Below, piece by piece: positions 44,180 to 64,000 of a DNA stretch of 64,000 nt. How positions within the stretch are numbered: the first letter of the stretch is position 1; each line of letters opens with the position of its first letter. The position numbers were made by a program, and so were the translations under genes. Source of the DNA: Shigella phage ESh24. The stretch lies in sequence record ON528734; one strand, written 5' to 3'. The notes beneath the pieces are model-generated. The model ran no database searches, had not been told where the DNA came from, and saw nothing but the letters and a program-made list of their open reading frames with translations.

Positions 44180-44473
44180 CTATTTAATGAATACTTTAGA
44201 TGATGCCTGAGCCACAGTATCACCGCATGATATTGGATCAGCCATTTGAACAGCTTTCTTTCCTGTGACATATACCTTAGAAGTTCTAGGTTGTGTCACT
44301 CCGCCATGTGTTTCATATGGCTTTTTAATTTCTGTATGTTCTGTAATTGGATCGCCTGCTATTAGAACAGCAATTCCTCCAGTGAATACTTTACTTTGTG
44401 TGGCATTCACAGCTGTTGGAGGCCAAGCTTCATGGCCAGCAGTAACACACTTATCATAACTTAATCCTGACAT
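44180..44473 (-). CDS. 5.4: PAAR-repeat spike tip protein gp5.4
   Basis: 97 aa Gly/Val-rich PAAR-like protein immediately upstream of gene 6. Confidence 0.8.
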
Positions 44474-47304: not shown

Positions 47305-47317
47305 GGGCCCTCCTGTT

Positions 47318-47340
47318 TATAAATATATTATCTATTTATA
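47318..47340. promoter_or_regulatory. divergent late promoters (TATAAATA plus strand for gene 4; TATAAATA minus strand for gene 53)
   Basis: TATAAATA at 47318-47325 and TATTTATA at 47333-47340. Confidence 0.55.
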
Positions 47341-47351
47341 AGGAGAATCCA

Positions 47352-47804
47352 ATGGCATATTCTGGAAAATGGGTTCCTAAAAATATATCAAAGTATAGAG
47401 GTGACCCTAAAAAAATTACGTATAGATCAAATTGGGAAAAATTCTTTTTTGAATGGTTAGATAAAAATCCAGAAATTATTGCATGGGGTAGTGAAACAGC
47501 AGTAATTCCTTATTTTTGTAATGCAGAAGGGAAAAAACGTAGATACTTCATGGATATTTGGATGAAAGATTCTTCTAGACAAGAATTTTTTATTGAAATA
47601 AAACCTAAAAAAGAAACACAACCGCCAGTTAAACCAGCACATCTAACAACTGCAGCGAAGAAAAGATTTATGAATGAAATTTATACATATTCCGTTAATA
47701 CCGACAAATGGAAAGCAGCGCAAGCTTTAGCTGAAAAGCGTGGAATAAAATTTAGAATTCTAACAGAAGATGGATTACGAGCTCTTGGCTTTAAGGGGGC
47801 ATAA
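47352..47804 (+). CDS. 4: head completion protein gp4
   Basis: 150 aa; T4 gp4 length and position. Confidence 0.85.
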
Positions 47805-48628
47805 TGGCTATTTTTCAAATAATTAATGAAAGCACTCCCCAAGTTCCAAAGGTTAAGCAATCATTAAACGAAAAGAAATGGATTCAGATAGGTCTTGAAT
47901 ATAAAAAGGCCAAAGCAAAAGGAATGACAGGAAAGCAATTTGCTGAAGAAAGAGGAATCAAATACTCTACGTTTACTTCGGCAATGTCAAAATATGCTTC
48001 GGGAATTAAAACGGCTGAAAAGATTCAAAAGCTTGAATCAAAACCAATGAATAAGCTCAATAAGCAAGAAAGACAACTGCTTATGATAAATTCATTCAGG
48101 CAAACATTGCGTGATAAAATTCGTAATGAAGGTGCAGCAATTAATAATAAAACCAGAAAGTGGTTTGCTGAAACTATTAAGCAAGTAAAAGGACATAAAG
48201 TTGTTCGCCCGCAGCCGGGACGAATATATGCTTTTGCTTATGATGCTAAACACAAGGAAACTCTTCCTTACTGGGATAAATTTCCTTTGATAATTTACCT
48301 TGGTTTAGGTAAGCATAACTTAATGTACGGATTGAACTTGCACTATATTCCACCTAAAGCTCGTCAGCAATTTCTAGAAGAGCTTTTAAAGCAATATTCA
48401 AATACACCTACTATTACTAATAAAACGAAATTAAAAATTGATTGGAGTCAAGTGAAAGGATTTAGGGGTGCAGATCAAATGATTAAGGCATATATACCCG
48501 GTAATATTATGGGTAGCCTTGTTGAAATCGCCCCGAAAGACTGGGCGAACGTTGTGTTGATGCCACTTCAGCAGTTCGTTTCAAAAGGAAAACGTTTCTC
48601 TGCAAACAAAGTCTGGTCAAATATCTAA
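47804..48628 (+). CDS. 2: DNA end protector protein gp2
   Basis: 274 aa; T4 gp2 length. Confidence 0.85.
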
Positions 48629-48734
48629 TTCTATTATCTTCCATTCTTTTCTATTGTTTGTTCTAATTGGAATTGAATGGAAGGGACTTAGACCCATTAT
48701 ACCACTAACAGTTATAAAGCATTATGAGGAATAT

Positions 48735-49265
48735 ATGTCGCAAGCTCTGCAACAAATTTTTAACCAAGCAAATACAACTAACTTTGTAGTATCAATACCA
48801 CATAGTAATACTACATCTGCTTTTACTTTAAATGCTCAGTCAGTTCCTATTCCAGGAATTAGAATACCTGTTACTGATACCGTGACTGGGCCGTTTGGAC
48901 TAGGTCGAGCACAACGACCGGGTGCTACATTTGAGTATGATCCACTCATCGTGAGATTTATAGTTGATGAAGAACTTAAGTCATGGATAGGAATGTATGA
49001 ATGGATGCTAGGAACTAGCAACTATCTTACAGGTGAAAATACTGCCCAAAAAACAGGTCCTGAGTACATTACGCTTTACATCTTAGATAATAGCAAAACT
49101 GAAATCGTGATGTCAATAAATTTTTATAAGCCTTGGGTTTCTGACCTATCTGAAGTAGAATTTAGCTATACGGAAGATTCAGACCCGGCTTTAGTATGTA
49201 CTGCAACGATTCCTTACACCTATTTTCAAGTAGAAAAAGATGGAAAAATTATAGCAGAAGTTTAA
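48735..49265 (+). CDS. 3: tail completion / sheath stabiliser gp3
   Basis: Start set at MSQALQQ (GAGGA RBS), giving 176 aa. Confidence 0.8.
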   Translation: MSQALQQIFNQANTTNFVVSIPHSNTTSAFTLNAQSVPIPGIRIPVTDTVTGPFGLGRAQRPGATFEYDPLIVRFIVDEELKSWIGMYEWMLGTSNYLTGENTAQKTGPEYITLYILDNSKTEIVMSINFYKPWVSDLSEVEFSYTEDSDPALVCTATIPYTYFQVEKDGKIIAEV

Positions 49266-49289
49266 TGCTTCAGTTTTGTGTGTTATAAT
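49266..49289 (+). promoter_or_regulatory. middle-type promoter (TGCTTCA MotA box plus TATAAT)
   Basis: TGCTTCA at 49266-49272, 11 bp spacer, TATAAT at 49284-49289, upstream of gene 1. Confidence 0.45.
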
Positions 49290-49314
49290 CTTAATTAAAT
49301 TTGAGGAGAAACAC

Positions 49315-50039
49315 ATGAAACTAATCTTTTTAAGCGGTGTAAAGCGTAGTGGAAAAGATACTACTGCTGATTTTATCATGAGCAATTATTCTGCAGTTAA
49401 ATACCAACTTGCTGGTCCTATTAAGGATGCATTGGCTTATGCATGGGGAGTATTTGCAGCAAACACTGACTATCCTTGCTTAACTCGTAAAGAGTTTGAA
49501 GGAATTGACTATGATCGTGAGACTAATTTAAATCTGACTAAATTAGAAGTAATCACGATTATGGAACAAGCATTTTGCTATCTTAATGGTAAAAGTCCGA
49601 TTAAAGGCGTGTTTGTTTTTGATGACGAAGGACAAGAATCAGTTAATTCCGTAGCATTTAACAAAATTATTGACGTTATAAATAATATTGAAGATCAATG
49701 GTCAGTCCGTCGTCTGATGCAAGCCCTAGGTACGGATTTGATTGTTAATAACTTCGACCGCATGTACTGGGTAAAATTATTTGCTTTAGATTATCTTGAT
49801 AAATTTAACTCAGGTTATGATTATTATATCGTTCCTGATACTCGTCAAGATCATGAAATGGATGCGGCTAGGGCGATGGGTGCTACAGTAATTCATGTAG
49901 TTCGTCCTGGTCAAAAATCCAATGATACACATATTACAGAAGCTGGATTGCCAATTCGTGATGGCGATTTAGTAATTACAAACGATGGTTCTCTTGAAGA
50001 ACTTTTTTCTAAAATTAAAAATACACTAAAGGTACTATA

Positions 50040-50040
<1 letters not shown>
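49315..50040 (+). CDS. 1: deoxynucleoside monophosphate kinase gp1
   Basis: Start set at MKLIFLSGVKRSGKDT (P-loop; GAGGAG RBS), giving 241 aa. Confidence 0.9.
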
Positions 50041-50737
<697 letters not shown>

Positions 50738-50749
50738 TTTCACAAAGTT

Positions 50750-50779
50750 GTTTACATACTGATGAGGTAGTGATACTAT
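50750..50779 (+). promoter_or_regulatory. early-type promoter (GTTTAC, 18 bp spacer, TACTAT) inside a 9 bp inverted repeat
   Basis: GTTTAC at 50750-50755, TACTAT at 50774-50779; GATGAGGTA/TACCTCATC flank the -10. Confidence 0.45.
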
Positions 50780-50809
50780 TACCTCATCAAAATTAATTAG
50801 GAAAATAAA

Positions 50810-51067
50810 ATGAAAACTTTCAAAGAGTTTGCTATAAAAACTACTATTACTGAATCTTCCCACGGTATGGAAGTAAAACTTGGAATGGCTTTAGCTGAAG
50901 CTGAGCGTCTTTTCTCTCGTATTAAAGAACTTGCTGCTGCAGTCGATCCTTCGTCTTTTAAAGGAGACCAAACGAAAGTTAAAGCACTTTTAGCATTATG
51001 CTCCGATGCGGGAGAAATCGCTAAAAATGGTTCTAAGATGAAGAAACGATTAGAAGATTTAAAATAA
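50810..51067 (+). CDS. internal-protein-like small protein with divergent capsid-targeting leader (ipI position)
   Basis: 85 aa; N-terminus MKTFKEFAIKTTITE resembles the IP capsid-targeting sequence; located after 57B where T4 has ipI. Confidence 0.6.
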   Translation: MKTFKEFAIKTTITESSHGMEVKLGMALAEAERLFSRIKELAAAVDPSSFKGDQTKVKALLALCSDAGEIAKNGSKMKKRLEDLK

Positions 51068-51079
51068 TTTCACAAAGTT

Positions 51080-51109
51080 ATTTACATAGGGTTTTAGTTG
51101 TGATACTAT
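51080..51109 (+). promoter_or_regulatory. early-type promoter, second copy of the 50729-50808 element
   Basis: ATTTAC at 51080-51085, TACTAT at 51104-51109; flanks are near-identical to the first copy. Confidence 0.4.
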
Positions 51110-51138
51110 TACCCTATCAACTACTGAGGAGAATAAAA

Positions 51139-51324
51139 ATGAAACGTTGTGAATTAATTCGAAATGTTGCTATTGCAATTTCTGCTTCCGCTTTTAGTTT
51201 TTCAATGTTTGTTGGATTTATATGCGGATTATTGACTACAGCAGAAAATGTTTTTTCACTTGTAGTAGCATTTTTAATTGGTTTAATCGCTATTGTTATG
51301 GATAAAATTTCTAAAGGTGAATAA
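51139..51324 (+). CDS. small hydrophobic (membrane) protein
   Basis: Start set at MKRCELIRN (GAGGAG RBS); two hydrophobic helices. Confidence 0.55.
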   Translation: MKRCELIRNVAIAISASAFSFSMFVGFICGLLTTAENVFSLVVAFLIGLIAIVMDKISKGE

Positions 51325-51729
51325 ATGAATATTAACGAATATTATGTTTATGCTGGAGATTATGCAAATCCTTCTCATTTTGAAGGTAATTTAATACCTG
51401 ATAGAGTTTTTAATACTCCTTTTGAAGCGTGGAGTTGGGTTGAAAGTAAAAATGGATTTTCTTATCGTTATGTTGAAGTAACTGATTGGAAAGGAACTAA
51501 ATATCCTAAAGAGCATTATTATGTAGACCCATCTAAAGTAAATTTTCTTTTGTTCGCAGGCGATAATTACTATCCTTGCGGTGGATATGATGATTTGATT
51601 GCGTATGCTGAAACAGAAGATGAATTACGCCAAATTATTGAAGACAATAAATCAAAACGATTTGGCGATAGTTTTGACTGGTGGCAAATCGTAAATGCCC
51701 ATACACATACTATTGTTGATAAAGGTTAA
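51325..51729 (+). CDS. hypothetical protein (134 aa)
   Basis: ORF directly abutting the upstream ORF. Confidence 0.6.
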   Translation: MNINEYYVYAGDYANPSHFEGNLIPDRVFNTPFEAWSWVESKNGFSYRYVEVTDWKGTKYPKEHYYVDPSKVNFLLFAGDNYYPCGGYDDLIAYAETEDELRQIIEDNKSKRFGDSFDWWQIVNAHTHTIVDKG

Positions 51730-51731
51730 TA

Positions 51732-52019
51732 ATGATTCTTTATGCGAAAGTATCATCCATTGAAAATGGATATAAATATGATCAAGAAGCAGCTAAAGCC
51801 TTGATTGATGATTATGGCATTTTAACATGTTTTGAAGTTGAAAAGGTTTACATTGATCGTTCATCTTCGCAAGTTAAATTAGTAAATGAAGACCGTAAAT
51901 TTAATACAGTAAATTTTGATTTCTTTATTGAAACAGAAAAAGGTCCTCTTGAATATGATATTTTCAAGAATCCTTTGGGTCTTGAATGCATCGTAAGTAT
52001 GTATCATCATAAATGGTAA
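51732..52019 (+). CDS. hypothetical protein (95 aa)
   Basis: ORF 2 nt after the previous stop. Confidence 0.6.
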   Translation: MILYAKVSSIENGYKYDQEAAKALIDDYGILTCFEVEKVYIDRSSSQVKLVNEDRKFNTVNFDFFIETEKGPLEYDIFKNPLGLECIVSMYHHKW

Positions 52020-52116
52020 ATATGCTTTAAGAATTATTTGTTATTATTAACTCATACCGCACTGATTAATACCCTCTATCATCAAGGGTTCTTGTTTGAG
52101 AGCCTTTGTTAATAAT

Positions 52117-52189
52117 TGGGAATTAGCCAAGTTGGTAAGGCATAGCACTTTGACTGCTAGATGCAAAGGTTCGAGTCCTTTATTCCCAG
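52117..52189 (+). tRNA. tRNA-Gln (anticodon UUG)
   Basis: Acceptor TGGGAAT/ATTCCCA, anticodon loop CTTTGAC, T-arm GGTTCGAGTCC. Confidence 0.8.
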
Positions 52190-52190
52190 C

Positions 52191-52277
52191 GCGAGAATGG
52201 TCAAATTGGTAAAGGCACAGCACTTAAAATGCTGCGGAATGATTTCCTTGTGGGTTCGAGTCCCACTTCTCGCACCA
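52191..52277 (+). tRNA. tRNA-Leu (anticodon UAA), type II long variable arm
   Basis: Acceptor GCGAGAA/TTCTCGC, loop CTTAAAA, encoded CCA. Confidence 0.8.
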
Positions 52278-52282
52278 AATTT

Positions 52283-52356
<74 letters not shown>

Positions 52357-52402
52357 ATTTATGACTCGTCGTGAGACGCTCAGTTCTTTATTAGGGACTG
52401 AT

Positions 52403-53011
52403 ATGCATTTTTATCTTTATAAAATAACAAATAAAATTAATAATAAAATTTATATTGGTGTGCATTCTACCGAAAATTTAGATGATGGATATATGGGTTC
52501 TGGTAAATTATTAAAAAGAGCCCAAGATAAATATGGTATAGAAAATTTTTCTAAAGAAATATTAGAGTATTTTGACGATAAAGAATCTATGCTTGAAGCC
52601 GAGAAAAATATTGTCACAGAAGAGTTTTTAAATAGACCAGATGTGTATAATTTAAAACTTGGAGGTGAAGGTGGATGGGATCATATAAATAATTATCCTA
52701 TGACAGATCAGCAACGCGAATTAATTTCATTGGGTGTTAAAAAGGCACATTCTAATGGAAAATTAAAAGGATGGTCTTCAAATGGATTAATGAAGAATGG
52801 CTTTGCTGGTAAAACTCATTCTCAAGAAGCTAAACGTAAAATAGCAAAAGCAAACGAAGCAAAAGTTTCTGTGGATGAAAGAAAAAGAAGAATAGAAATT
52901 TCTAAATTATATGATTTTTCTAAACGTGGCGAATTGTCTAAATATGCTAAGCATATTGGCGTAAGTCATACTCAAGCAAAAAGAATTCTAAATCAAATTA
53001 ACAATATATAA
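52403..53011 (+). CDS. segB: GIY-YIG homing endonuclease (SegB-like) inside the tRNA cluster
   Basis: Start set at MHFYLYKITNKINNKIYIGV (GIY-YIG core; track start 52361 abuts tRNA-Gly with no RBS); basic C-terminal DNA-binding region. Confidence 0.8.
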   Translation: MHFYLYKITNKINNKIYIGVHSTENLDDGYMGSGKLLKRAQDKYGIENFSKEILEYFDDKESMLEAEKNIVTEEFLNRPDVYNLKLGGEGGWDHINNYPMTDQQRELISLGVKKAHSNGKLKGWSSNGLMKNGFAGKTHSQEAKRKIAKANEAKVSVDERKRRIEISKLYDFSKRGELSKYAKHIGVSHTQAKRILNQINNI

Positions 53012-53017
53012 ATATTT

Positions 53018-53107
53018 GGAGGCGTGGCAGAGTGGTTTAATGCACCGGTCTTGAAAATCGGCAGTCGCTCCGGCGACTCATAGGTTCAAATCCTATCGCC
53101 TCCGCCA
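53018..53107 (+). tRNA. tRNA-Ser (anticodon UGA), type II
   Basis: Acceptor GGAGGCG/CGCCTCC, loop CTTGAAA, long variable arm, CCA. Confidence 0.8.
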
Positions 53108-53112
53108 GTTTT

Positions 53113-53188
53113 GCTGATTTAGCTTAGTAGGTAGAGCAACTCACTTGTAATGAGAAGGTCGGCGGTTCGATTCCGTCAATCAGCACCA
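53113..53188 (+). tRNA. tRNA-Thr (anticodon UGU)
   Basis: Full cloverleaf traced by hand (acceptor GCTGATT/AATCAGC, loop CTTGTAA). Confidence 0.8.
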
Positions 53189-53189
53189 A

Positions 53190-53264
53190 GGCCCTGTAGC
53201 TGGAAGGTTCAAGCAAGCGACTCATAATCGCCAGATGGTGGTTCAATTCCACCCAGGGCCACCA
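53190..53264 (+). tRNA. tRNA with CAU anticodon, Ile2 (lysidine) type
   Basis: Loop CTCATAA; anticodon arm GCGACTCATAATCGC resembles the bacterial ileX type rather than Met. Confidence 0.7.
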
Positions 53265-53276
53265 AATTATGAATTA

Positions 53277-53363
53277 GGGGAGTTATCCCGTAGAGGTAGC
53301 GGTGTGGACTGTAAATCCATTGTCATTGCGACTCGGGTGGTTCGACTCCATCACTCCCCACCA
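53277..53363 (+). tRNA. tRNA-Tyr (anticodon GUA), type II
   Basis: Acceptor GGGGAGT/ACTCCCC, loop CTGTAAA, long variable arm. Confidence 0.7.
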
Positions 53364-53367
53364 ATTT

Positions 53368-53443
53368 GGATGTGTAGCTCAATGGCAGAGCGATCGCCTG
53401 TTAAGCGATTGGTTATAGGTTCGAATCCTATCACGTCCGCCAA
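53368..53443 (+). tRNA. tRNA-Asn (anticodon GUU)
   Basis: Acceptor GGATGTG/CACGTCC, loop CTGTTAA. Confidence 0.7.
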
Positions 53444-53446
53444 ATA

Positions 53447-53522
53447 CGAGGCATAGCTCAGAAGGAAGAGCAAGGACCTTCTAAGTCCTAGGTCGTAGGT
53501 TCGATCCCTACTGCCTCGACCA
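53447..53522 (+). tRNA. tRNA-Arg (anticodon UCU)
   Basis: Full cloverleaf traced by hand; loop CTTCTAA; CCA encoded. Confidence 0.8.
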
Positions 53523-53538
53523 ATTAAGTGAGGAAAAT

Positions 53539-53889
53539 ATGAAAGGTAATGTTTATTTAGTAGTTCACGATTTAACATTTTATTTTAATCACAATGACAC
53601 TGTTATTTCTGAACGTGTAATTAATTTGCTTTATCAACACGCGGATTATGTTTATGTCGAAAACGAATATGGTCATTGGCAATTTCTCAAAAATCGTTCA
53701 TTTGGCTTAGATGGTTACGAATACTTTGAACGTAAAGACCTTTTAGATAAAATTCCGTTATCTACGCAATATCAAAATCACGAGTCTTTATATAAATGCC
53801 GTCCAATTCGAAATGCTGAATCTGCGTATGAAGCAATTGATTTATGGCGTAAACGTCGTGAACAGATTGATGCTTTAAAAGAATATTAA
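53539..53889 (+). CDS. hypothetical protein (116 aa)
   Basis: GAGGAAA RBS 6 nt upstream of the ATG. Confidence 0.6.
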   Translation: MKGNVYLVVHDLTFYFNHNDTVISERVINLLYQHADYVYVENEYGHWQFLKNRSFGLDGYEYFERKDLLDKIPLSTQYQNHESLYKCRPIRNAESAYEAIDLWRKRREQIDALKEY

Positions 53890-54230
53890 GAAACCGGGTC
53901 GCTACCGGTAAGTCGTCGGACTGATGTTCCCTGGGTAAGGAATCGTGTTAATAAATCTTTATGATTTGTTGATGCCCTCTTACATCACAGCAGAAACGGC
54001 GCACCGAATTATCGATTCGAGGAAATATCTTTGCCGTAAGCCGAGTAGCGTTTTTGACGGAACGTTCGGATATGGTCGAGATATGGCCTTTTAAAAAAAT
54101 ATTGAGTAGCGTCAACTGCTTAATAACCGGGTTCGAATCCCGGCGTTTCGTACAAACACTTGCCTTAGCAGGTGGAACCCCGACAAGGTTGCCGCAAGGC
54201 TTAGCCCCGACCGAAAGGTTGGGGCTTTTT
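53890..54230 (+). ncRNA. candidate small stable RNA region (T-arm-like hairpin and strong terminator)
   Basis: No convincing ORF; CCGGGTTCGAATCCCGG T-arm-like element at about 54124-54142; ends with a 10 bp GC stem (AGCCCCGACC-GAAA-GGTTGGGGCT) plus TTTTT at 54203-54230. Confidence 0.35.
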
Positions 54231-54305
54231 AGTTTGAATCACTCAGAGAATGCTGTTACGGATAATAAATAATTAATAACCAATAAATTATTTCAAGGAT
54301 TTTAA

Positions 54306-54869
54306 ATGAAAACCTATGCCGAATTTTTAACCGAAGCAGCAAAATTACCATCTGAAGCAGATCTTACTAAAGTATTCTTCCACTTGGACCCAAAAGACCG
54401 GGGCGATTTTCTTAAGTGGAAAGCTAAAGCTATTGAAATGTATAACATCGATAATAGTTCTTTTACGATGAGTCAAGAAAATAAATTCAATAAAGCATTT
54501 TTCAAAATTTCTAAGAAACTTGCATCAGGCGCTCAGGTTCCTAAATCTGCCTTAGCTACTCCTGAACGTGCGCCTGTTAAAATTTCTAAGAATATGTTCG
54601 ATACTAAAAAATACGTTAATGCTTTGAATAAAGCTCTTGATGCATTGGATGATGCAAAGAAGGCAGCACACGATCTTCAAGACGTATACACCGATTTTGA
54701 TCGTAAAACTAAAGGTTCTATTTCAAATAGCGAACGCAATAGTGTAAGTGTTTATTCTGATAGCCTTGATGTTCTTGGCGATGCGTATACTGAAATTAAA
54801 AATCGTATTAACACCGCATCTAAGCTAAAAGCTGCCGCAGAAGCTATAATAACTAAACTAAGCAAATAA
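54306..54869 (+). CDS. internal-protein-like protein with capsid-targeting leader (187 aa)
   Basis: N-terminus MKTYAEFLTEA is the T-even IP capsid-targeting motif; the body is a basic, Ala/Lys-rich protein. Confidence 0.7.
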   Translation: MKTYAEFLTEAAKLPSEADLTKVFFHLDPKDRGDFLKWKAKAIEMYNIDNSSFTMSQENKFNKAFFKISKKLASGAQVPKSALATPERAPVKISKNMFDTKKYVNALNKALDALDDAKKAAHDLQDVYTDFDRKTKGSISNSERNSVSVYSDSLDVLGDAYTEIKNRINTASKLKAAAEAIITKLSK

Positions 54870-54877
54870 TTTTAAAT

Positions 54878-54902
54878 CCCTATCTAAATGATAGGGCTTT
54901 TT
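54878..54902 (+). terminator. rho-independent terminator (CCCTATC-TAAATGA-GATAGGG followed by CTTTTT)
   Basis: Stem-loop followed by a T tract directly after the 54306 gene. Confidence 0.65.
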
Positions 54903-55034
54903 GGTATCTAGGCCTTTCCAGGCCTCTCTAGGCATCATTTAGTTTCTACCCTTTATAATATATTATCCTATCCTTTGATTTCCCCTCCCTGCCCTAGAAT
55001 TCCCCAAAACTTTTTAAAAAATTTTTCACAAAAC

Positions 55035-55064
55035 TGTTTACATCCTTGTCCTTCCATGGTACTA
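55035..55064 (+). promoter_or_regulatory. early-type promoter (GTTTAC, 18 bp spacer, TACTAT)
   Basis: Shares TTTCACAAA..GTTTACAT with the 50750 and 51080 elements. Confidence 0.45.
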
Positions 55065-55108
55065 TACAACTATCAACTACTGATACAGAAAACAACTTGG
55101 AGAATAAA

Positions 55109-55372
55109 ATGGATAATTACGGTGAACTGTTCAACTTCTTTATGAAATGTGTTTCAGAAGATTTTGGTCGTACAGTGAATGATATTAAAGTTATCGGTCC
55201 TGACCATCCGATGTTTGAAACCTACGCAGTAATGGGTAATGAAGATGGTCAGTGGTATACTGTAAAAGTTGTGATTAACATGTTCACTGCTGAAGGTTAT
55301 GTTAAACTGTCTTCTAAAGTTTACCATGATAACGATGAAATCGCAGAAGAATATTTCAATAATATGAAATAA
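55109..55372 (+). CDS. hypothetical protein (87 aa)
   Basis: Start set at MDNYGEL (GGAGAATAAA RBS); the track's 55046 start lies inside the promoter -10. Confidence 0.6.
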   Translation: MDNYGELFNFFMKCVSEDFGRTVNDIKVIGPDHPMFETYAVMGNEDGQWYTVKVVINMFTAEGYVKLSSKVYHDNDEIAEEYFNNMK

Positions 55373-55441
55373 TTGTGTACAAACACCAAGGACGGTGTTA
55401 TTATAGACTTATCAAAACAAATACAGAAAACGGAGAAATAA

Positions 55442-55618
55442 ATGACTACATTAATTATTTGGTTTGACGAAAATGAAGAAACATACTGCGTGAACATTGG
55501 AGAAAGCCCAATGCCAGAATTTGAATCTTCGGATAAAAACTCGGTTGTATCTTGGGCTGAAGGTTATAAAGCAGCAAAAGGCGATGTTGAAATAGTTTAC
55601 AAACTATCCGGAGTATAA
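55442..55618 (+). CDS. hypothetical small protein (58 aa)
   Basis: Not in the ORF track; ATG at 55442 preceded by GGAGAAATAA; product MTTLIIWFDENEETYCVNIG... Confidence 0.5.
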   Translation: MTTLIIWFDENEETYCVNIGESPMPEFESSDKNSVVSWAEGYKAAKGDVEIVYKLSGV

Positions 55619-55661
55619 TACTCTCGTGGATTTTAAATCTTAATTAACCTAAGGAAATACT

Positions 55662-56255
55662 ATGAACACACTGAAGAAAATTGTTGAGTTTATTCGCACT
55701 AAACTTGGTTCTGCTATGGCTAAAAATCTATCTGTTGAAGAGCAGTATACTGCTGCGGCAGCAAAATTGCTTGATAAAATTAAAGATCTAAAAACTGCTT
55801 CTGTTAAATCTATTAATGAAGAAAAGCGTATTCGTGAACTTATTGTCGAAAAGAATAAGCAGGCCGAATCAAAAGAGCGTGAAATTCGCAAGCTTCTTTC
55901 CGAAGGTCAAGATGTAACAATGCATGCTAAACTCGGTTTACTATATCGTCGAACAGCTGAGCAGTTGACTACTAAAGCTGATGGTTATGCTGAAATGCGA
56001 ATTGAAATTGCCAAGAAAGTAGTTGAGTTAGATGATGCTCGCCAAGAACTTGCAGTTAAATTGGAATATATCCGTGAAACTCGTGCAGCAAATGCCCTTG
56101 GAATTAGTACTGCTGATGATGTAGTTGAAATTGCAGCGCTGACTAAGGTTGATATTGAAGATACTCTTGCCCGAGTTGAAACCTTTAATGGCAATATTTC
56201 CGGGGTTGAAACTACCTCTGCCGATGTTCAGGAATATATTAATTCTCTGAAATAA
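55662..56255 (+). CDS. hypothetical coiled-coil protein (197 aa)
   Basis: Heptad-rich, charged; AGGAAA RBS; followed by a GC hairpin. Confidence 0.6.
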
Positions 56256-56261
56256 CGATAA

Positions 56262-56275
56262 GGGGCTTCGGCCCC
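56262..56275 (+). terminator. stem-loop (GGGGC-TTCG-GCCCC)
   Basis: GC hairpin after the 55662 gene; U-tract is weak. Confidence 0.45.
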
Positions 56276-56296
56276 TATTACTTGGAGTAAGTAGGA

Positions 56297-56905
56297 ATGA
56301 AAATGCAAAGTGATTTCAATTCAATGTTTGAAGAGTTCCAAAGACATGTTGATGTTCCAGACCAATTATTAAATGCTCTTAAACGTATGGCAGAAGGGCG
56401 TAATTATTATTGGGGTTCTTCATATGAAACTGATGAAAGTCTTTCTGGAAGATTTTCTAGAGGTAAAAAGTCTTTAATACGTCCTGGAATACTTATTAAC
56501 AGTATTGAATCAATTCATTTATTAACATGTGATTTTGACGTTGAATTTACTGATTTTGTTTCTCCTGAATGGACGGTCTGTTATTTAAACGACGATTATG
56601 ATTATCTTGGCGTTTATAGTTTAAGTGATGCATGGTTTAAACGTAATTTACAAAAGTCAAATTTATTCTATATTGATACTACTGTAAAGTTTCAGGGCAA
56701 GAAATATTTCTTTACTCTTATAGTTGATTCTGAAACGAAGCATGAAAATAAACGTATTCTTAGTAAAAAGAATATCTTAACTATTGTTGATGATCTTTTT
56801 GATAAATTCGTAGAAAATCCCAATTTTGAAAGCGATTTATTACTAGAAAAATTTGTTAAGGAATGTAGAGAATATGTCAAAGCCATCAATGTATCTTCCA
56901 AGTAA
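56297..56905 (+). CDS. hypothetical protein (202 aa), first member of a shared 3' junction family
   Basis: ORF ending ...EKFVKECREYVKAINVSSK; its 3' end carries the RBS and start of the next gene. Confidence 0.6.
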   Translation: MKMQSDFNSMFEEFQRHVDVPDQLLNALKRMAEGRNYYWGSSYETDESLSGRFSRGKKSLIRPGILINSIESIHLLTCDFDVEFTDFVSPEWTVCYLNDDYDYLGVYSLSDAWFKRNLQKSNLFYIDTTVKFQGKKYFFTLIVDSETKHENKRILSKKNILTIVDDLFDKFVENPNFESDLLLEKFVKECREYVKAINVSSK

Positions 56906-57266
56906 ACCCTTAAAGTATGAATTAAAGCGTCAGATAATTTCTACTGATGTATTAATAGGTCCTGTTATACTCATATCATTTGTAATTCTATTGATTATTG
57001 GAGGTGTTTTAGATGTTATGACTGATATTGATTCTGGCGAAATACTGGTATTAATGCTAATTCTTCCATTAATAGTTCCACTTTTATTAGTACCTGTAAA
57101 TTGGGTAGGATACTGGTATCAAGGAAGACATTATCGTAAACGCGTACGTGATTGGAAAGCACAGTGTGAAAAGATTAAAAAGGAACACCAGCTTAAACTT
57201 GCTGCGTATGAATTTAATGAAATTATGAAATTTGTTAAGGAATCACGATGCAAAAGCCAAAACTAA
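56874..57266 (+). CDS. small two-helix membrane protein (e.x family paralog)
   Basis: Start set at MSKPSMYL (AAGGAATG junction module); two hydrophobic helices; C-terminus ...FVKESRCKSQN. Confidence 0.6.
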   Translation: MSKPSMYLPSKPLKYELKRQIISTDVLIGPVILISFVILLIIGGVLDVMTDIDSGEILVLMLILPLIVPLLLVPVNWVGYWYQGRHYRKRVRDWKAQCEKIKKEHQLKLAAYEFNEIMKFVKESRCKSQN

Positions 57267-57610
57267 ATAAAGTCAAATATTCGCTTCCTGAGTCATTTTT
57301 AATTTTTGCTGTGGCGTTGGCTGCAGCTCTTGCGGGTAGTCTTTTTGGATTGTTAATTGACTGTCTTATTTTAAACATTGACGGCACAGTAAATATAATA
57401 GAAGTTTGGAGTGAACTTCACTATACTAAAATTATTTCATTATTTTCATTCTTTGGTACCATGTTATATTTTCATTATGATAATTTTAAAATAAATTGGC
57501 AAAGAAAAAAAGATTACAAAATACAATTAAAAGAATATAATAGTTACATGTCTCATATTGAAAAAGAATCAATGGAAGAGTTTGTGAGTGATTGTAGGAA
57601 AATCAAATGA
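57248..57610 (+). CDS. small two-helix membrane protein (paralog)
   Basis: 120 aa; two hydrophobic helices; C-terminus ...FVSDCRKIK. Confidence 0.6.
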   Translation: MQKPKLNKVKYSLPESFLIFAVALAAALAGSLFGLLIDCLILNIDGTVNIIEVWSELHYTKIISLFSFFGTMLYFHYDNFKINWQRKKDYKIQLKEYNSYMSHIEKESMEEFVSDCRKIK

Positions 57611-57747
57611 TTTTAAAAACTCGCTGGTATGATTTAGATGATGGGGATGATGGCATTTCAGTTGATAGAGTTGATTGGAATGGTTGTTCCAAAGATATGA
57701 AAAATTTGTTGATTAGGGAGTTTAGAATGGGATTATCAAGCAACTAA
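57607..57747 (+). CDS. hypothetical small acidic protein (46 aa)
   Basis: ATG overlaps the upstream stop (ATGA); not in the ORF track. Confidence 0.4.
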   Translation: MILKTRWYDLDDGDDGISVDRVDWNGCSKDMKNLLIREFRMGLSSN

Positions 57748-57775
57748 GCCATCTATTATAACAGATGATAAATTC

Positions 57776-58077
57776 GTGTGTATTCATAATGGTCGCGCTA
57801 AGTTAACGAACGCTGATTGGTTCACAGATAAAATTATGATTCTGTGGTATATTATTAGTCTTCCTGTGACATCATTCGTATTTTACTTTTTTATAAAAAA
57901 TCCAATGGGCAGAATAGGAGATTGGATTCTTTTAACCATACTTGTTAATATTTTTACAGCAGCAATATTATCTGGGATATGGTACACGTTCATTGAAATG
58001 CCATGGCGGCTACGCAGACAACAAAAGATTTTTGATGAAAAGAAATATACTCAAAATTTAAATAACTTTATCACTGA

Positions 58078-58096
<19 letters not shown>
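57776..58096 (+). CDS. small membrane protein (paralog)
   Basis: 106 aa; hydrophobic helices; C-terminus ...FITECRKLQ. Confidence 0.55.
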
Positions 58097-59065
<969 letters not shown>

Positions 59066-59069
59066 AGTT

Positions 59070-59099
59070 GTTTACTTTCTCCTAAAACTGTGATAGTAT
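59070..59099 (+). promoter_or_regulatory. early-type promoter (GTTTAC, 18 bp spacer, TAGTAT) inside a 7 bp inverted repeat
   Basis: ACTGTGA/TCACAGT flank the -10 hexamer. Confidence 0.45.
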
Positions 59100-59136
59100 A
59101 TTCACAGTTACTAATTAAAATATTTAAAGGAAACAC

Positions 59137-59718
59137 ATGAAAACGTATAAAGAATTTATCGCTGAAGCTTCTGTGGAAAAGGCCAAAGGCATTAATAAAG
59201 ATGAGTGGACCTACCGTTCGGGAAACGGCTTTGACCCTAAAACGGCTCCTATTGAACGGTACTTAGCTACAAAGGCTTCCGACTTTAAAGCCTTCGCTTG
59301 GGAAGGACTTCGTTGGCGTACCGATTTAAATATTGAAGTTGATGGACTTAAATTTGGCCATATTCAGGATGTTGTTGCTAGTAACTTAGACGCAGCTTTT
59401 GTTAAAGCCGACGGTGACCTTCGTCGCTGGAATTTAAAACTGTTCTCTAAACAGAAAGGCCCGGTGTTTGTGCCTAAAGCTGGTAAATGGGTTATTGATA
59501 ATAAATTAGCTAAGGCTGTCAACTACGCTGGTCTTGAATTCGCCAAGCACAAATCATCATGGAGAAGTCTTGATGCAATGGCCTTCCGTAAAGAATTCGC
59601 CGAGGTTATGACTAAAGGCGGCTTTAAGGCAGAACTAGATACCTCTAAAGGTACGTTTAAAGACGCTAATGTTCAGTACGCTTACGCCGTTGCTAATGCA
59701 GCCCGCGGTAATTCTTAA
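59137..59718 (+). CDS. ipIII: internal protein III-like (capsid-targeted)
   Basis: 193 aa; N-terminus MKTYKEFIAEA; position immediately after e. Confidence 0.75.
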   Translation: MKTYKEFIAEASVEKAKGINKDEWTYRSGNGFDPKTAPIERYLATKASDFKAFAWEGLRWRTDLNIEVDGLKFGHIQDVVASNLDAAFVKADGDLRRWNLKLFSKQKGPVFVPKAGKWVIDNKLAKAVNYAGLEFAKHKSSWRSLDAMAFRKEFAEVMTKGGFKAELDTSKGTFKDANVQYAYAVANAARGNS

Positions 59719-59826
59719 TAAAGCCGAGTTCGAACCTGGTAATTGATAAATACAGAAACGGGCAATTCATGTGTGTGAATTGCCTCAAACTTAAAGAATA
59801 AAACTATTTACATTTAAAGGAAACAC

Positions 59827-60300
59827 ATGAAAACATATCAAGAATTTATTACTGAAGCAGCTATTAATTCTCAAATTATTGCTGAATCTTTTACTGATCT
59901 TTTGAAATTTAAAAAAGGACAGAAAATCACTGCTGTATTGGATGATGGTACAGAAGTTGAGATGGATGTGCAAGGATATAATTATGCAGTAGATGGAAAA
60001 CTGTATAATAAATCTCATGCTAAATTTGATTCATTTGACGACTTTGTTAATACAGTTGAAGATGAAAAAACTCGTCGATCCATTGCAACTGGTGATGCTA
60101 AGGTTCTTATGGCACATGGTCATGAACGCATTCGCGCTAAACAGAATAAAATGGGTGAAGATAATTTTGCATTAGTCGGTTATCAATCTGGTAAACAAAC
60201 CTATGGTTATCAGCGTACTGCTACCATGTATAACAAAAATGGTAAAATTGCCTTTGTAAATAGTAAAGGTTCTATTCAGTACGTTAAATCATTCAAATAA
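59827..60300 (+). CDS. internal-protein-like protein (157 aa) at the ipII position
   Basis: N-terminus MKTYQEFITEA; shares the 15 nt upstream sequence ATTTAAAGGAAACAC with the 59137 gene. Confidence 0.7.
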   Translation: MKTYQEFITEAAINSQIIAESFTDLLKFKKGQKITAVLDDGTEVEMDVQGYNYAVDGKLYNKSHAKFDSFDDFVNTVEDEKTRRSIATGDAKVLMAHGHERIRAKQNKMGEDNFALVGYQSGKQTYGYQRTATMYNKNGKIAFVNSKGSIQYVKSFK

Positions 60301-60453
60301 GCAAATAAGAAATATGGGAACAAACTGGACCTCATGATTCTGTGAGGGATTCCCGCCAACCTGTAATAAGGTCGAGCCCAAGTGCGGTAATGGGTAAATA
60401 CAGAAATGGACAATTCATGCGCCACGGAATGGCCCAAACTTAGAGAGAATAAA

Positions 60454-60996
60454 ATGAGAACATTTTTAACTGGTCCTTATCTATCCCTGATGAATGCTTT
60501 TACACACCATTCTGATGCTAGAGTAGAAGAAATTTGTAAGAATGATTATCTTCCACCAATGGAAGATGTGCTCAAACAGTACTGCACACTTCGTATAGAT
60601 GGTGGACGTCAATCCGGTAAATCAATTGCTGTGACTAACTTTGCTGCTAATTGGCTGTATGATGGCGGAACAGTTATTGTTCTTTCTAATACTTCAGCTT
60701 ACGCTAAAATTTCTGCAAATAACATTAAAAAGGAATTTTCGCGTTATTCTAATGATGATATACGTTTTCGTTTATTTACTGATTCTGTCCGTAGTTTTAT
60801 CGGTAATGAAGGTCATAAATTCCGTGGGTTATCGCTTTCTCGTATCTTGTACATAATTGACGAACCTATTAAAGCTCCTGATATGGATAAGATTTACAAT
60901 ATCCATATTAAAACGGTACAACACTGTTGTCGAAGCTATAATGCTGAAACAGGTGAAACAGTTCGTCCTCAATTTTTTGTGATTGGAATGCAATGA
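60454..60996 (+). CDS. small P-loop NTPase (Walker A GGRQSGKS, Walker B LYIIDEP)
   Basis: Start set at MRTFLTG (GAGAGAATAAA RBS), about 180 aa. Confidence 0.6.
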   Translation: MRTFLTGPYLSLMNAFTHHSDARVEEICKNDYLPPMEDVLKQYCTLRIDGGRQSGKSIAVTNFAANWLYDGGTVIVLSNTSAYAKISANNIKKEFSRYSNDDIRFRLFTDSVRSFIGNEGHKFRGLSLSRILYIIDEPIKAPDMDKIYNIHIKTVQHCCRSYNAETGETVRPQFFVIGMQ

Positions 60997-61322
60997 TGAC
61001 AGACACACAGCTTTTCGAATATCTTTATTTTTCGCCAAAAACTATTAAAAATAAATTGGTGAATCATTTTGAAATTTTGGCAAATAACAACATTTTGAGC
61101 GAATTTTATCCCAAGCAATACAAATTACAAAAAGGCGTATTCAAAGGATGCAGAGTTTTGTGCACGGCTCCTAATGCACGGCTAATGAATAAAATTCCAT
61201 ATTTTACCATGGAATTTATTGATGGGCCTTTTAAAGGACTAATCACGCAGAGTTTAATGGCATATGATTCTGAGCCATTTTTAATTAAAGAACAATCTTG
61301 GATAAATTTATTTTCTAATTGA
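60993..61322 (+). CDS. hypothetical protein (109 aa), translationally coupled to the P-loop NTPase
   Basis: ATGA start/stop overlap with the upstream gene. Confidence 0.55.
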
Positions 61323-61329
61323 GGTTTAT

Positions 61330-61692
61330 ATGAAAGCATATCAAATTCTTGAAGGCACGCATAAAGGTACTATTTATTTTGAAGATGGTATTCAAGCACG
61401 AATTATTGTCTCTAAAACCTTTAAAGAGGACTCTTTTGTAGACCCAGAAATTTTCTACGGTTTGCATGCCCGTGAAATTGAAATTGAAACACAACCTACA
61501 GTTAAAATTGAAGGTGGTCAACACCTGAACGTTAACGTTCTGCGTCGTGAAACTCTGGAAGATGCAGTTAAGCATCCGGAAAAATATCCGCAGCTGACCA
61601 TCCGTGTATCCGGTTATGCAGTTCGCTTTAACTCTCTGACTCCGGAACAGCAGCGCGACGTTATCGCTCGTACCTTCACCGAGAGTTTGTAA
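61330..61692 (+). CDS. autonomous glycyl-radical cofactor, GrcA/YfiD-like
   Basis: C-terminal [57 protein letters not shown] carries the RVSGY glycyl-radical motif; the 3' half uses CTG/CGT/CCG codons unlike the rest of the window. Confidence 0.85.
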
Positions 61693-61913
61693 TGGCAAAG
61701 ATAATTATTGAAGGTTCTAAAGATGTGCTAAATGCTTTCGCCGAGTGGTTTAGTAATTCAGGCGAACAGCAATTTAATGAAGCATGGAACATGGGTGATA
61801 TTAATGGAATTTATCCTACGACAGAAATTTCTGTTCAGGGATATGGCATTCATGAACCTATTCGTTTAGTTGAATATGATTTATGCACTGGTGAGGAAGT
61901 CAAATATGATTGA
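61692..61913 (+). CDS. hypothetical protein (73 aa)
   Basis: TAATG stop/start overlap with the GrcA-like gene. Confidence 0.5.
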   Translation: MAKIIIEGSKDVLNAFAEWFSNSGEQQFNEAWNMGDINGIYPTTEISVQGYGIHEPIRLVEYDLCTGEEVKYD

Positions 61914-62172
61914 AGATATTAAAGGTTATAAGCCACATACCGACGAAAAAATCGGTAAAGTAAATGCTATTAAAGACGCTGAAGTTCGTTTAGGACTTAT
62001 CTTTGATGCTTTATACGATGAATTTTGGGAAGCATTTGATAGCTGTGAAGATGATGAACTTGCGAAGAATTACGCCGAAAGCCTCGATCAGTTAACTATT
62101 GCTAAAACGAAACTCAAAGAAGCCAGTATGTGGGCTTGCCGTGCTGTGTTCCAACCAGAGGAAAAATACTAA
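61906..62172 (+). CDS. hypothetical acidic protein (88 aa)
   Basis: Start set at MIEDIKG, overlapping the upstream stop. Confidence 0.5.
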
Positions 62173-62450
62173 TGGCTCAATTAAGCGCAGGGTTTGGTTA
62201 TGAGTATTATACTGCACCTCGTCGTGTATCTGCCGCTCCTAAGAAAATTCAAAGTCTTGATGACTTCCAAGAAGTAATTCGTAATGCTTTCCAGGACTAT
62301 GCGCGTTATCTTAAAGAAGATTCACAGGACTGTCTCGAAGAAGATGAAATTGCTTACTATGCGCAGCGTCTTGAACAGCTTAAAAACTTACATGAGGTTC
62401 GTGCAGAAGTTTCAAAGTCTATGAATAAATTGATCAGATTTAAAGAATAA
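62172..62450 (+). CDS. hypothetical protein (92 aa)
   Basis: Start set at MAQLSAGF (TAATG overlap). Confidence 0.5.
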
Positions 62451-62452
62451 CT

Positions 62453-62482
62453 GTTTACTTTTCCTCTTGACTGTGGTATAAT
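62453..62482 (+). promoter_or_regulatory. early promoter for regB (GTTTAC, 18 bp spacer, TATAAT)
   Basis: Consensus-like; an 8 bp imperfect inverted repeat CTTGACTG/CAGTTAAG brackets the -10. Confidence 0.55.
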
Positions 62483-62509
62483 TTTTCTATCAGTTAAGAG
62501 GAGAATAAC

Positions 62510-62971
62510 ATGACTATCAACACAGAAGTTTTTATCCGTCGAAATAAGCTCCGTCGTCACTTTGAGTCGGAGTTTCGTCAAATTAACAATGAGATTCGTG
62601 AGGCATCAAAAGCAGCAGGAGTCTCATCGTTTCATCTAAAATATTCTCAACATCTTCTTGATCGTGCAATTCAACGGGAGATTGATGAGACATATGTTTT
62701 TGAATTATTCCATAAAATAAAAGACCATGTTTTAGAAGTTAATGAATTCCTGAGTATGCCTCCGCGTCCTGACATTGACGAGGATTTTATTGATGGGGTT
62801 GAATATCGTCCTGGACGTTTAGAAATCACAGATGGAAATCTTTGGCTTGGATTTACAGTTTGTAAACCTAACGAGAAGTTCAAAGACCCGTCACTTCAAT
62901 GTAGGATGGCAATTATCAACAGTCGTCGTTTACCAGGAAAGGCTTCTAAAGCAGTAATTAAAACTCAATGA
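62510..62971 (+). CDS. regB: RegB sequence-specific endoribonuclease
   Basis: 153 aa, MTINTEVFIRRNKLRRHFESEFRQINNEIRE...; own RBS contains GGAG. Confidence 0.92.
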   Translation: MTINTEVFIRRNKLRRHFESEFRQINNEIREASKAAGVSSFHLKYSQHLLDRAIQREIDETYVFELFHKIKDHVLEVNEFLSMPPRPDIDEDFIDGVEYRPGRLEITDGNLWLGFTVCKPNEKFKDPSLQCRMAIINSRRLPGKASKAVIKTQ

Positions 62972-62978
62972 GGTAAGC

Positions 62979-63524
62979 ATGAGAAAAGCACTACTCGCTG
63001 GTCTATTGGCCATTTCAATGATGGCACATAGCTCCGAGCATACTTTCAGTAATGTCCAACTCGATAACATGCGTTACGCGTATCAATTCGGGGAACAATT
63101 TTCTAAGGATGGAAAATATAAAACACACAAAAATATCCACAAGAGCGGATTAGGTCATATAATGGCTGCTATTTTATGGCAAGAAAGCTCTGGCGGAGTT
63201 AATTTAAAATCTAAACCAAAGCATCACGCCTACGGAATGTTCCAAAATTATTTGCCTACTATGCGAGCAAGAGTTAAGGAACTTGGTTATAATATGACCG
63301 ATGCTGAAATAAAAAGAATGTTGAATAAACGATCCAATTCAGCTTCCTGGGCGTACATTGAACTTTCTTATTGGTTAAATATACATAAGGGCGATATAAG
63401 AAAAGCAATATCCTCTTATAATTCGGGATGGAATGTTAAAGCTGGTTCTAAATATGCTTCTGAAGTCCTAGAAAAGGCTAATTACCTTAAAAATAATAAA
63501 CTTTTGGAAATAGTAAATGACTAA
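62979..63524 (+). CDS. vs.1: secreted protein with lytic-transglycosylase-like motif (vs.1 position)
   Basis: 181 aa; N-terminal signal peptide MRKALLAGLLAISMMAHS; WQESSGG motif. Confidence 0.6.
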   Translation: MRKALLAGLLAISMMAHSSEHTFSNVQLDNMRYAYQFGEQFSKDGKYKTHKNIHKSGLGHIMAAILWQESSGGVNLKSKPKHHAYGMFQNYLPTMRARVKELGYNMTDAEIKRMLNKRSNSASWAYIELSYWLNIHKGDIRKAISSYNSGWNVKAGSKYASEVLEKANYLKNNKLLEIVND

Positions 63525-63864
63525 AATTTTGGTTTTATGTATAGGATTAATTTCATTTTCTGCTTCTGCATCAGCAGATACATCATATACTGAAATTAGA
63601 GAATATGTAAACCGCACTGCGGCAGATTATTGTGGGAAAAATAAAGCATGCCAAGCTGAATTTGCACAGAAATTAATATATGCATATAAAGATGGAGAAA
63701 GAGATAAATCAAGCAGATACAAAAACGATACATTATTAAAACGATATGCTAAAAAGTGGAATACCTTAGAATGTTCAGTTGCGGAGGAGAAAGATAAAGC
63801 CGCTTGTCATTCAATGGTTGACCGTTTGGTAGATTCTTATAATCGAGGATTGAGTACTAGATGA
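63517..63864 (+). CDS. vs: secreted Cys-containing small protein (vs position)
   Basis: 115 aa; signal peptide; four Cys; located after regB and vs.1. Confidence 0.55.
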   Translation: MTKILVLCIGLISFSASASADTSYTEIREYVNRTAADYCGKNKACQAEFAQKLIYAYKDGERDKSSRYKNDTLLKRYAKKWNTLECSVAEEKDKAACHSMVDRLVDSYNRGLSTR

Positions 63865-64000
63865 TTGTAAAATATATCAAGGGCGATATTGTCGCCCTAT
63901 TTCTTCAAGGTAATATTATTGCGCACGGGTGCAATTGTTTTCATACAATGGGCAGTGGTGTAGCTGGTCAATTAGCAAGAGCCTATCCCAAAATTTTAGA
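63861..64000 (+). CDS. partial ORF (3' end outside window), possible macro-domain-like N-terminus
   Basis: ATGA overlap with the upstream stop; MIVKYIKGDIVALFLQGNIIAHGCNCFHTMGSGVAGQLARAYPKIL loosely resembles the macro-domain N..GxGV.G motif. Confidence 0.4.
   Translation, partial: MIVKYIKGDIVALFLQGNIIAHGCNCFHTMGSGVAGQLARAYPKIL

Follow-up and report, generated by a model that had tools for sequence, protein, structure and literature searches.

A host-identical tract within the glycyl-radical cofactor gene vs.6 of Shigella phage ESh24: probable gene conversion from Escherichia coli grcA

The locus at 61330..61692 in the DNA of Shigella phage ESh24 raises the question of how one short phage gene came to be composed of two kinds of sequence, a 5' half of phage type and a 3' half of host type. 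The gene lies in a stretch of 64,000 nucleotides (nt) of record ON528734, which is called the window below, and it is vs.6/grcA of a Tequatrovirus, the gene of an autonomous glycyl radical cofactor. An initial annotation had described a product that ends in a glycyl-radical module, a switch of composition and codon usage at about 61507, and a recent transfer or gene conversion from the host gene grcA as the suspected cause. The answer proposed here is that a tract of 169 nt in the 3' half was, very probably, derived from the host by recombination (gene conversion) into a pre-existing phage homolog of grcA; this tract is followed below from its extent to its origin, its recurrence in other phages, and its possible meaning for the gene product.

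Composition and extent of the host-identical tract

The two halves of vs.6 differ in base composition as well as in codon choice. Codons 1–59 have a GC content of 0.34 and a GC content at third codon positions (GC3) of 0.20, versus 0.50 and 0.46 in codons 60–120, and the GC3 break, on which a check had been set beforehand, is present. The tract of 169 nt stands at the 99th percentile of GC among windows of equal size (the mean of the 64 kb is 0.359). Leucine in the 3' half is written as CTG in five of six codons, as against a CTG share of 7% in the 52 long open reading frames (ORFs) of the window; proline is always CCG (3/3), asparagine always AAC (3/3), and arginine always CGT or CGC (6/6), and among 1,422 windows of 61 codons this half ranks in the lowest 0.14% for its fit to the codon usage of the phage. 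GC3 alone, taken in overlapping 10-codon windows, is a noisy marker, and weight was put on codon-usage likelihood and nucleotide identity instead. Two other stretches, 17925..19387 and 33220..33804, reach a GC content of 0.50–0.53, equal to that of the grcA tract, and gave no megablast match to E. coli genomes; high GC alone is therefore no marker of host DNA here.

Nucleotide identity sets the limits of the tract more closely. From 61508 to 61676 the gene is identical to E. coli grcA at all 169 positions (100%), and from 61508 to the end of the stop codon at 61692 it is identical at 180 of 185 (97.3%), whereas 5' of 61508 the identity drops to about 46%. In the 5,426 complete E. coli genomes, every best match to the ESh24 tract has an identity of 95–99%. 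The five differences from E. coli grcA in the last 16 nt (61677, 61680, 61683, 61686, and 61687) are all synonymous, the codon pairs being listed, with ESh24 before E. coli, as TTC/TTT, ACC/ACT, GAG/GAA, AGT/AGC, and TTG/CTG. Using E. coli grcA and one unconverted phage copy as references, the ratio of phage-like to host-like informative sites is 57:9 upstream of the break and 3:33 downstream of it (Fisher p = 3e-15), and the maximum chi-square breakpoint falls between 61506 and 61518; the switch at about 61507 and the phage-like 5' half of the initial annotation are thus recovered, with the break itself at 61507/61508. The 120-amino-acid product likewise ends in the glycyl-radical module as described, and its C-terminal 60 residues, E61–L120, are identical to E. 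coli GrcA 68–127.

This likeness to the host goes beyond what a conserved protein module brings with it. A block of 55 codons in ESh24 has 0 differences to E. coli and 20 to Klebsiella pneumoniae; none of its approximately 42 synonymous sites differs from E. coli, compared with about 56% of them in unconverted phage copies, and the chance of such an outcome is roughly 1e-15 by our own calculation. The 3' block was expected to be closer to host grcA than to other phage copies, and so it is, with 100% identity to the host over 169 nt versus 75–86% to the phage copies outside Tequatrovirus and Mosigvirus. The genes pflB and tdcE were considered as donors and rejected, as grcA gives the top match across the E. 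coli genomes examined, with a weaker protein match to PflB (146 bits for GrcA, 94 bits for PflB, with the vs.6 protein as query).

The identity to the host is confined to this tract. Compared with the host locus ung-grcA-eamB, it ends at the vs.6 stop codon on one side and at 61508 on the other, with none beyond. With 1..39500 as query, megablast matched none of the 5,426 E. coli genomes, and the matches listed for 39001..64000 comprise the grcA tract and one tRNA-Tyr match to an E. coli plasmid, with no other coding stretch among them. The latter gene (53277..53363; 91.5% to an E. coli O111:H8 plasmid record) belongs to a cluster of 10 tRNA genes at 52117..54153, in which ARAGORN also reports an unusually long tRNA-Phe of 97 nt with the anticodon AAA at 54057..54153.

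The tract encodes the beta strand, the glycyl radical loop, and most of the C-terminal helix of the module. In E. coli GrcA, also named YfiD, residues 61–127 are structured with a fold like that of residues 693–759 of pyruvate formate-lyase (PFL), and residues 1–60 are disordered and help the protein to bind cleaved PFL (PMC8683613). With its start at GrcA codon 67/68 and its end close to that of the gene, the tract largely coincides with the structured glycyl-radical domain. This conserved module would be the only part of the gene in which phage and host are similar enough (72–85%) for homologous recombination, and a heteroduplex that reaches the edge of homology would explain why the left junction is invariant.

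Probable conversion of an older phage gene and direction of transfer

Of the two events named in the initial annotation, gene conversion is the one retained, and the acquisition of a new gene is not; a diverged homolog, a phage-type end, and the Karamvirus copies all speak for a gene that was in the phage before the tract. The N-terminal half aligns with GrcA residues 28–67 at 35% identity over 40 amino acids (BLASTP, E = 2e-6), and the nucleotide identity of the 5' half is 97–98% to other Tequatroviruses, 89–90% to Mosigvirus, and 71–77% to Jiaodavirus and Karamvirus. Phage-type synonymous states persist in the last five codons, so that the host tract is flanked by phage sequence at either end. 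In Karamvirus (Enterobacter phage CC31, Cronobacter phage Pet-CM3-4, and PG7) the 3' block has 30–38 differences from E. coli in 165 nt; together with the RB43 copies, the range is 30–40 differences per 165 nt to both E. coli and K. pneumoniae. The Karamvirus 3' half is unconverted and only 71–80% identical to the hosts compared, and its identity to ESh24 is about 75% in the 5' and 3' halves alike.

The same separation is seen when 92 phage loci are compared with the best of 81 host grcA genes. The usual identity of the 3' module is 72–85%, and the only outliers are Tequatrovirus and Mosigvirus, with 96–99% to E. coli, and Jiaodavirus, whose 3' block is 90–94% identical to the allele of Pseudocitrobacter in this host set. 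Diverged, unconverted modules are kept by Karamviruses and by phages of the RB43 and RB49 types.

Three lines of sequence evidence show that the transfer ran from host to phage: the codon usage of the tract is atypical of the phage, the two halves of the host gene are equally diverged, and the tract is nested within Escherichia. Between host species, the identities of the 5' and 3' parts of grcA are 84% and 84% (E. coli–Salmonella) or 84% and 88% (E. coli–K. pneumoniae), which indicates vertical inheritance of host grcA in one piece. In a neighbour-joining tree of the block, all Tequatrovirus and Mosigvirus tracts fall inside the Escherichia clade (198 of 200 bootstraps); the copies of Karamvirus, Krischvirus, T5-like phages, and Morganella phage MP1 branch outside the enterobacterial host genes, and those of Pseudotevenvirus lie on long branches among them. 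At both of the two sites where E. coli and a genome of a cryptic Escherichia clade differ, the ESh24 tract has the E. coli state.

Recurrence, age and rival explanations

A corresponding replacement with a different donor is found in phages of Klebsiella. Over about 170 nt, 106 phage records match K. pneumoniae grcA at 95–99% identity; the best of those listed are Klebsiella-infecting Jiaodavirus, and their match starts where the E. coli tract starts. The 55-codon block of the Jiaodaviruses Mineola, KP17, and Nispero has 4–7 synonymous differences to K. pneumoniae and 19–21 differences to E. coli, and the block of Tequatrovirus and Mosigvirus has 0–4 synonymous differences to E. coli and 19–21 differences to K. 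pneumoniae, the two hosts themselves being 20 differences apart. KP17 and K. pneumoniae grcA share an exact run of 104 nt from the same codon junction, AAA ATT / GAA GG, onward, and the clade of Jiaodavirus with K. pneumoniae is recovered in 168 of 200 bootstraps. The K. pneumoniae reference is the grcA of one strain, whose chromosome is filed as a plasmid in PLSDB; several whole or partial chromosomes are labelled as plasmids in that database (e.g., a 5.37-Mb K. pneumoniae 'plasmid unnamed2'; L174 is CP125156.1). On these sequence comparisons it is likely that at least two independent, host-specific replacements took place, from different host genera, one E. coli and one K. pneumoniae-like.

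Exchange of the module at this position may also extend to other phages. The copies of Krischvirus GEC-3S (L089 167..583) and of the RB49-like phage 011D4 (L093 167..583) are 97–100% identical over their first 231 nt, and over their last 186 nt the identity is only 65–85%. This pair marks a third replacement of the glycyl-radical module at the same EGGQH junction, with a donor that is absent from the host grcA set compared (best 80.8%). In Morganella phage MP1 (L090 182..583), the C-terminal 63 residues score 105.3 bits against E. coli PflB 697–759 and 104.1 bits against E. coli GrcA, and the module contains the PflB-type residues NVMNREMLL and LTKEQQ; the module of some phages may derive from pflB rather than from grcA.

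The word 'recent' in the initial annotation holds relative to the split of Tequatrovirus and Mosigvirus and fails relative to the ESh24 isolate. The mosaic is not private to ESh24 and is common to T4, T2, RB69, and about 620 records of T-even phages, among roughly 1,500 phage records with a match to vs.6. T4 differs from E. coli grcA at three positions over the last 185 nt. Between ESh24 and Mosigvirus, the synonymous divergence (dS) is 0.36–0.40 in the 5' half and 0.02–0.13 in the tract, and the vs.5 proteins of the two are clearly different, with the adjoining tract nearly identical; the E. coli-type tract is thus younger than the separation of the two genera.

How many captures from E. coli lie behind this distribution is less clear. 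The right junction varies, at 61676 in ESh24, 3 nt further on in L095, 6 nt further on in L096, L099, and the other Mosigvirus copies, and 9 nt further on in T4. Position 61548, which is grcA nt 240, corresponds to a T/C polymorphism of E. coli in a CGT/CGC codon. Both states occur among the Tequatrovirus and the Mosigvirus copies, and one copy has G; this variation could stem either from captures of different E. coli alleles on separate occasions or from mutations that recurred. Together with the intermingling of the two genera in the tract tree, the variable junctions and the nt-240 polymorphism hint at several captures. The competing account, which is regarded as a real possibility and held tentatively, assumes a single conversion from E. 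coli to phage, spread afterwards by recombination among co-infecting Tequatroviruses and Mosigviruses, with the Klebsiella-type tract as a separate event. It agrees with the left junction, which is constant in all phage copies listed, with a tract tree that does not sort the sequences by genus, and with private synonymous changes that form a star around the E. coli allele; furthermore, T-even phages are established to recombine readily in mixed infection. The differing right junctions and the presence of the E. coli T/C polymorphism in both phage genera count against a single capture with spread, as does the reported lack of recombination between RB69 and T4 (PMC6024577), none of the three being decisive.

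The remaining explanations deny a recent conversion from the host altogether. The host-like 3' half could be ancestral, an ancient chimera preserved by a constraint at the nucleotide level (codon selection or an RNA element) with no recent exchange, and the high amino-acid conservation of the module across all copies, of phage and host alike, as well as the invariant left junction, would fit such a history. It is nevertheless very improbable, because the block of the unconverted relatives has a dS of at least 1 versus E. coli, which equals or exceeds the dS of their 5' halves and indicates that the block is under no intrinsic synonymous constraint. E. coli and K. pneumoniae also differ in the block with a dS of 0.57, Jiaodavirus has the Klebsiella and not the E. 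coli allele, and the divergence between Tequatrovirus and Mosigvirus is far lower in the tract than in its flanks. Transfer in the reverse direction, in which E. coli and, separately, Klebsiella took the 3' half of grcA from T-even phages, would give an equally high identity and has no specific support beyond that; it is hardly credible given that the codon usage of the tract is typical of the host and atypical of the phage, that the halves of host grcA are equally diverged while the tract follows host taxonomy, and that homology ends at the stop codon and at a domain boundary that lies within the phage gene and not within that of the host. Finally, host-read contamination, a chimeric assembly, or chance convergence from amino-acid conservation could be invoked, as conservation of the module alone yields 70–85% nucleotide identity in every phage copy. 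The probability of such an artefact is close to nil, for the same mosaic recurs in T4, T2, RB69, and more than 600 independently sequenced phages, and the absence of any synonymous difference at the approximately 42 sites is far from the 56% or so of unconverted copies.

Function, proposed route and the locus

The statement of the initial annotation that the T4 homolog Y06I is able to repair oxygen-damaged PFL agrees with Wagner et al. 2001 as cited in PMC8683613. According to PMC8683613, the radical of Y06I is installed by the PFL-activating enzyme (PFL-AE) and the activity of oxygen-cleaved PFL is restored (Wagner et al. 2001), and biochemical validation exists for two spare-part proteins, Y06I and YfiD. 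ESh24 vs.6 encodes a spare-part protein of approximately 14 kDa and is the ortholog of Y06I, so that the function of PFL rescue is assigned to it by orthology. By the mechanism established for the T4 ortholog, the spare part attaches to host PflB that oxygen has cleaved at the glycyl radical, and the host activase PflA sets a new radical on the glycine of the spare part (Gly95 in ESh24), by which catalysis is regained. T4 shuts off host gene expression, so that the phage would have to bring a spare part of its own, and the anaerobic glycyl-radical ribonucleotide reductase of T4 takes formate as its reductant. A phage-encoded spare part could thereby keep PFL active, and hence the supply of acetyl-CoA, ATP, and formate, during the oxygen fluctuations of the gut.

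As to the origin of the tract, the structured-domain block of an old, AT-rich phage grcA homolog was very probably overwritten via homologous recombination with the chromosomal grcA of the host. For the molecular route it is proposed that phage nucleases release fragments of host DNA and that these may enter replicating phage DNA by strand invasion, carried out by the UvsX/UvsY recombination-replication machinery; the proposal draws on established T4 biology. A first conversion would raise the identity to enterobacterial grcA to about 85–100% and ease later conversions, and fixation may be favoured because an exact host-type module fits host PflA and PflB. A landing-pad ratchet of this kind, by which the module is continually kept in step with the grcA of the current host through repeated recombination in lytic infections, is put forward as a conjecture with somewhat limited confidence. 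If it is true, strictly lytic T-even phages that use hydroxymethylcytosine and degrade host DNA would still sample that DNA often enough to overwrite a homology of about 170 nt repeatedly, the sequence of the tract would be a record of the recent host history of a phage lineage, and an exact match to the PflA/PflB system of the host would be under selection.

Several observations weigh against the proposed conversion and its route. T-even phages break down host DNA, which contains cytosine, and have hydroxymethylcytosine in their own, so that recombination with the host should be rare. Nothing here points to an adaptive conversion; only two residues of the block (E77L and K81E, phage numbering) separate the GrcA of E. 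coli from that of K. pneumoniae, and unconverted modules are presumably functional. The E. coli-type data fit repeated captures as well as a single capture followed by phage-to-phage spread, and the Klebsiella-type tract is 97–98%, not 100%, identical to the sole K. pneumoniae strain compared. The base-by-base comparison covers about 25 phage copies, the wider counts being taken from BLAST summaries. Moreover, the GrcA equivalog family NCBIfam TIGR04365 (residues 20–120) scores 154.6 bits, under its cutoff of 170, on account of the diverged phage N-terminus; it is still the top-scoring family for the vs.6 protein (GrcA3 106.4 bits, GrcA2 93.6 bits).

The identity of the gene is supported by its protein and by its neighbourhood. 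The vs.6 proteins of ESh24 and T4 (Y06I) are equal in length and identical at 118 of 120 amino acids, the gene order vs.7-vs.6-vs.5...regB-vs.1-vs is that of T4, and over its last 12 kb the window matches Tequatroviruses such as ECML-134 and Shfl2 at about 95% identity. Pfam PF01228 (Gly_radical) matches residues 60–101 at 67.2 bits (cutoff 22.2), and the closest solved structure is 6OWR, the NMR structure of E. coli YfiD/GrcA (E = 4.6e-42). The protein is small and stands alone; its match to PFL is confined to PFL residues 697–759, without the catalytic barrel. The radical site in Table 1 is predicted from alignments to GrcA and to PflB 697–759, and the role of the residue is taken from the PFL and YfiD literature (PMC8683613).

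Table 1. Features of the vs.6 locus of Shigella phage ESh24 (positions in the window) and the T4 reference gene
Feature	Position	Strand	Description
vs.6/grcA coding sequence	61330..61692	+	120 amino acids and stop; from ORF listing, Pfam, and T4 comparison
Phage-type 5' half	61330..61507	+	codons 1–59 and first base of codon 60
Probable host-derived conversion tract	61508..61676	+	169 nt, equal to E. coli grcA nt 200–368
Phage-type 3' end	61677..61692	+	third base of codon 116, codons 117–120, and stop
Predicted glycyl radical site Gly95 (GGT, RVSGYAV motif)	61612..61614	+	corresponds to GrcA Gly102 and PflB Gly734
Shine-Dalgarno-like GAGG	61321..61324	+	5 nt 5' of vs.6 ATG; putative function
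Upstream gene vs.7	60993..61322	+	stop codon overlapped by the GAGG of vs.6
Downstream gene vs.5	61692..61913	+	from ORF listing; start overlaps vs.6 stop (TAATG)
T4 vs.6 reference	NC_000866 63557..63919		protein NP_049730

The downstream gene vs.5 is translationally coupled to vs.6. A GAGAG is present in the 3' end of vs.6 at 61681..61685, 6 nt ahead of the vs.5 start codon. The retained GAG AGT codons might serve as the ribosome-binding site of vs.5, an idea that is only partly tenable and is weakened by T4, which has the host-like GAA where ESh24 has GAG. A promoter and terminator scan of 59000..63000 gave nothing above shuffled expectation. On the minus strand, an ORF of 127 codons at 61315..61698 covers the entire vs.6; nothing marks it as a gene, and it probably arises from the codon composition of the opposite, sense strand.

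Among known systems, the nearest is T4 Y06I, an ortholog with the same host-derived tract and the same gene neighbourhood. The two proteins differ at residues 54 (T in ESh24, P in T4) and 73 (R in ESh24, H in T4), R73 being the host residue that ESh24 has kept, and the host-identical tract of ESh24 is 9 nt shorter at its right end. E. coli GrcA/YfiD (P68066) shares the domain plan, in which an N-terminal half that matches the disordered part of GrcA is followed by the structured radical domain; the N-terminal half of ESh24 is, besides its low identity, 7 residues shorter, and its gene stands in a phage operon with phage translation signals, whereas E. coli grcA stands in the ung-grcA-eamB locus. 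The glycyl radical domain of PflB (693–759) has the same fold and motif and is the part that the spare part replaces, but it is not the donor of the tract.

A closer parallel to the process itself is the intragenic recombination between host and phage in psbA and psbD of cyanophages (Sullivan et al. 2006, PMC1484495). In both cases an auxiliary metabolic gene of a T4-like phage swaps segments with its host ortholog, and mosaics with compositional breaks result. Unlike the cyanophage genes, however, vs.6 belongs to classical coliphages that degrade host DNA and use hydroxymethylcytosine; its tract is short (about 170 nt), with a left edge no more than a few codons from where the structured domain begins, and it is still 100% identical to its donor, which switches with the host genus (E. 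coli versus Klebsiella). Earlier genome comparisons went no further than noting that vs.6 has a Gly_radical domain, with a guess at a part in nucleotide metabolism (PMC1524935). Nothing in the searchable literature was found to describe the nucleotide mosaic, although a remark in the T4 genome review (PMC150520) is possible; the gene and its biochemical role were already known, and what is added here is the precise anatomy of the host-phage mosaic.

The vs.6 tract is a clean and datable case, outside marine cyanophages, of an auxiliary metabolic gene converted by host sequence, and it shows that recombination of T-even phages with the chromosome of the host does take place in nature, although these phages degrade host DNA. 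It also suggests that the compatibility of a spare part with the host activase and with cleaved PFL may be host-specific. For annotation, the tract may serve as a marker of the host genus of a phage lineage.

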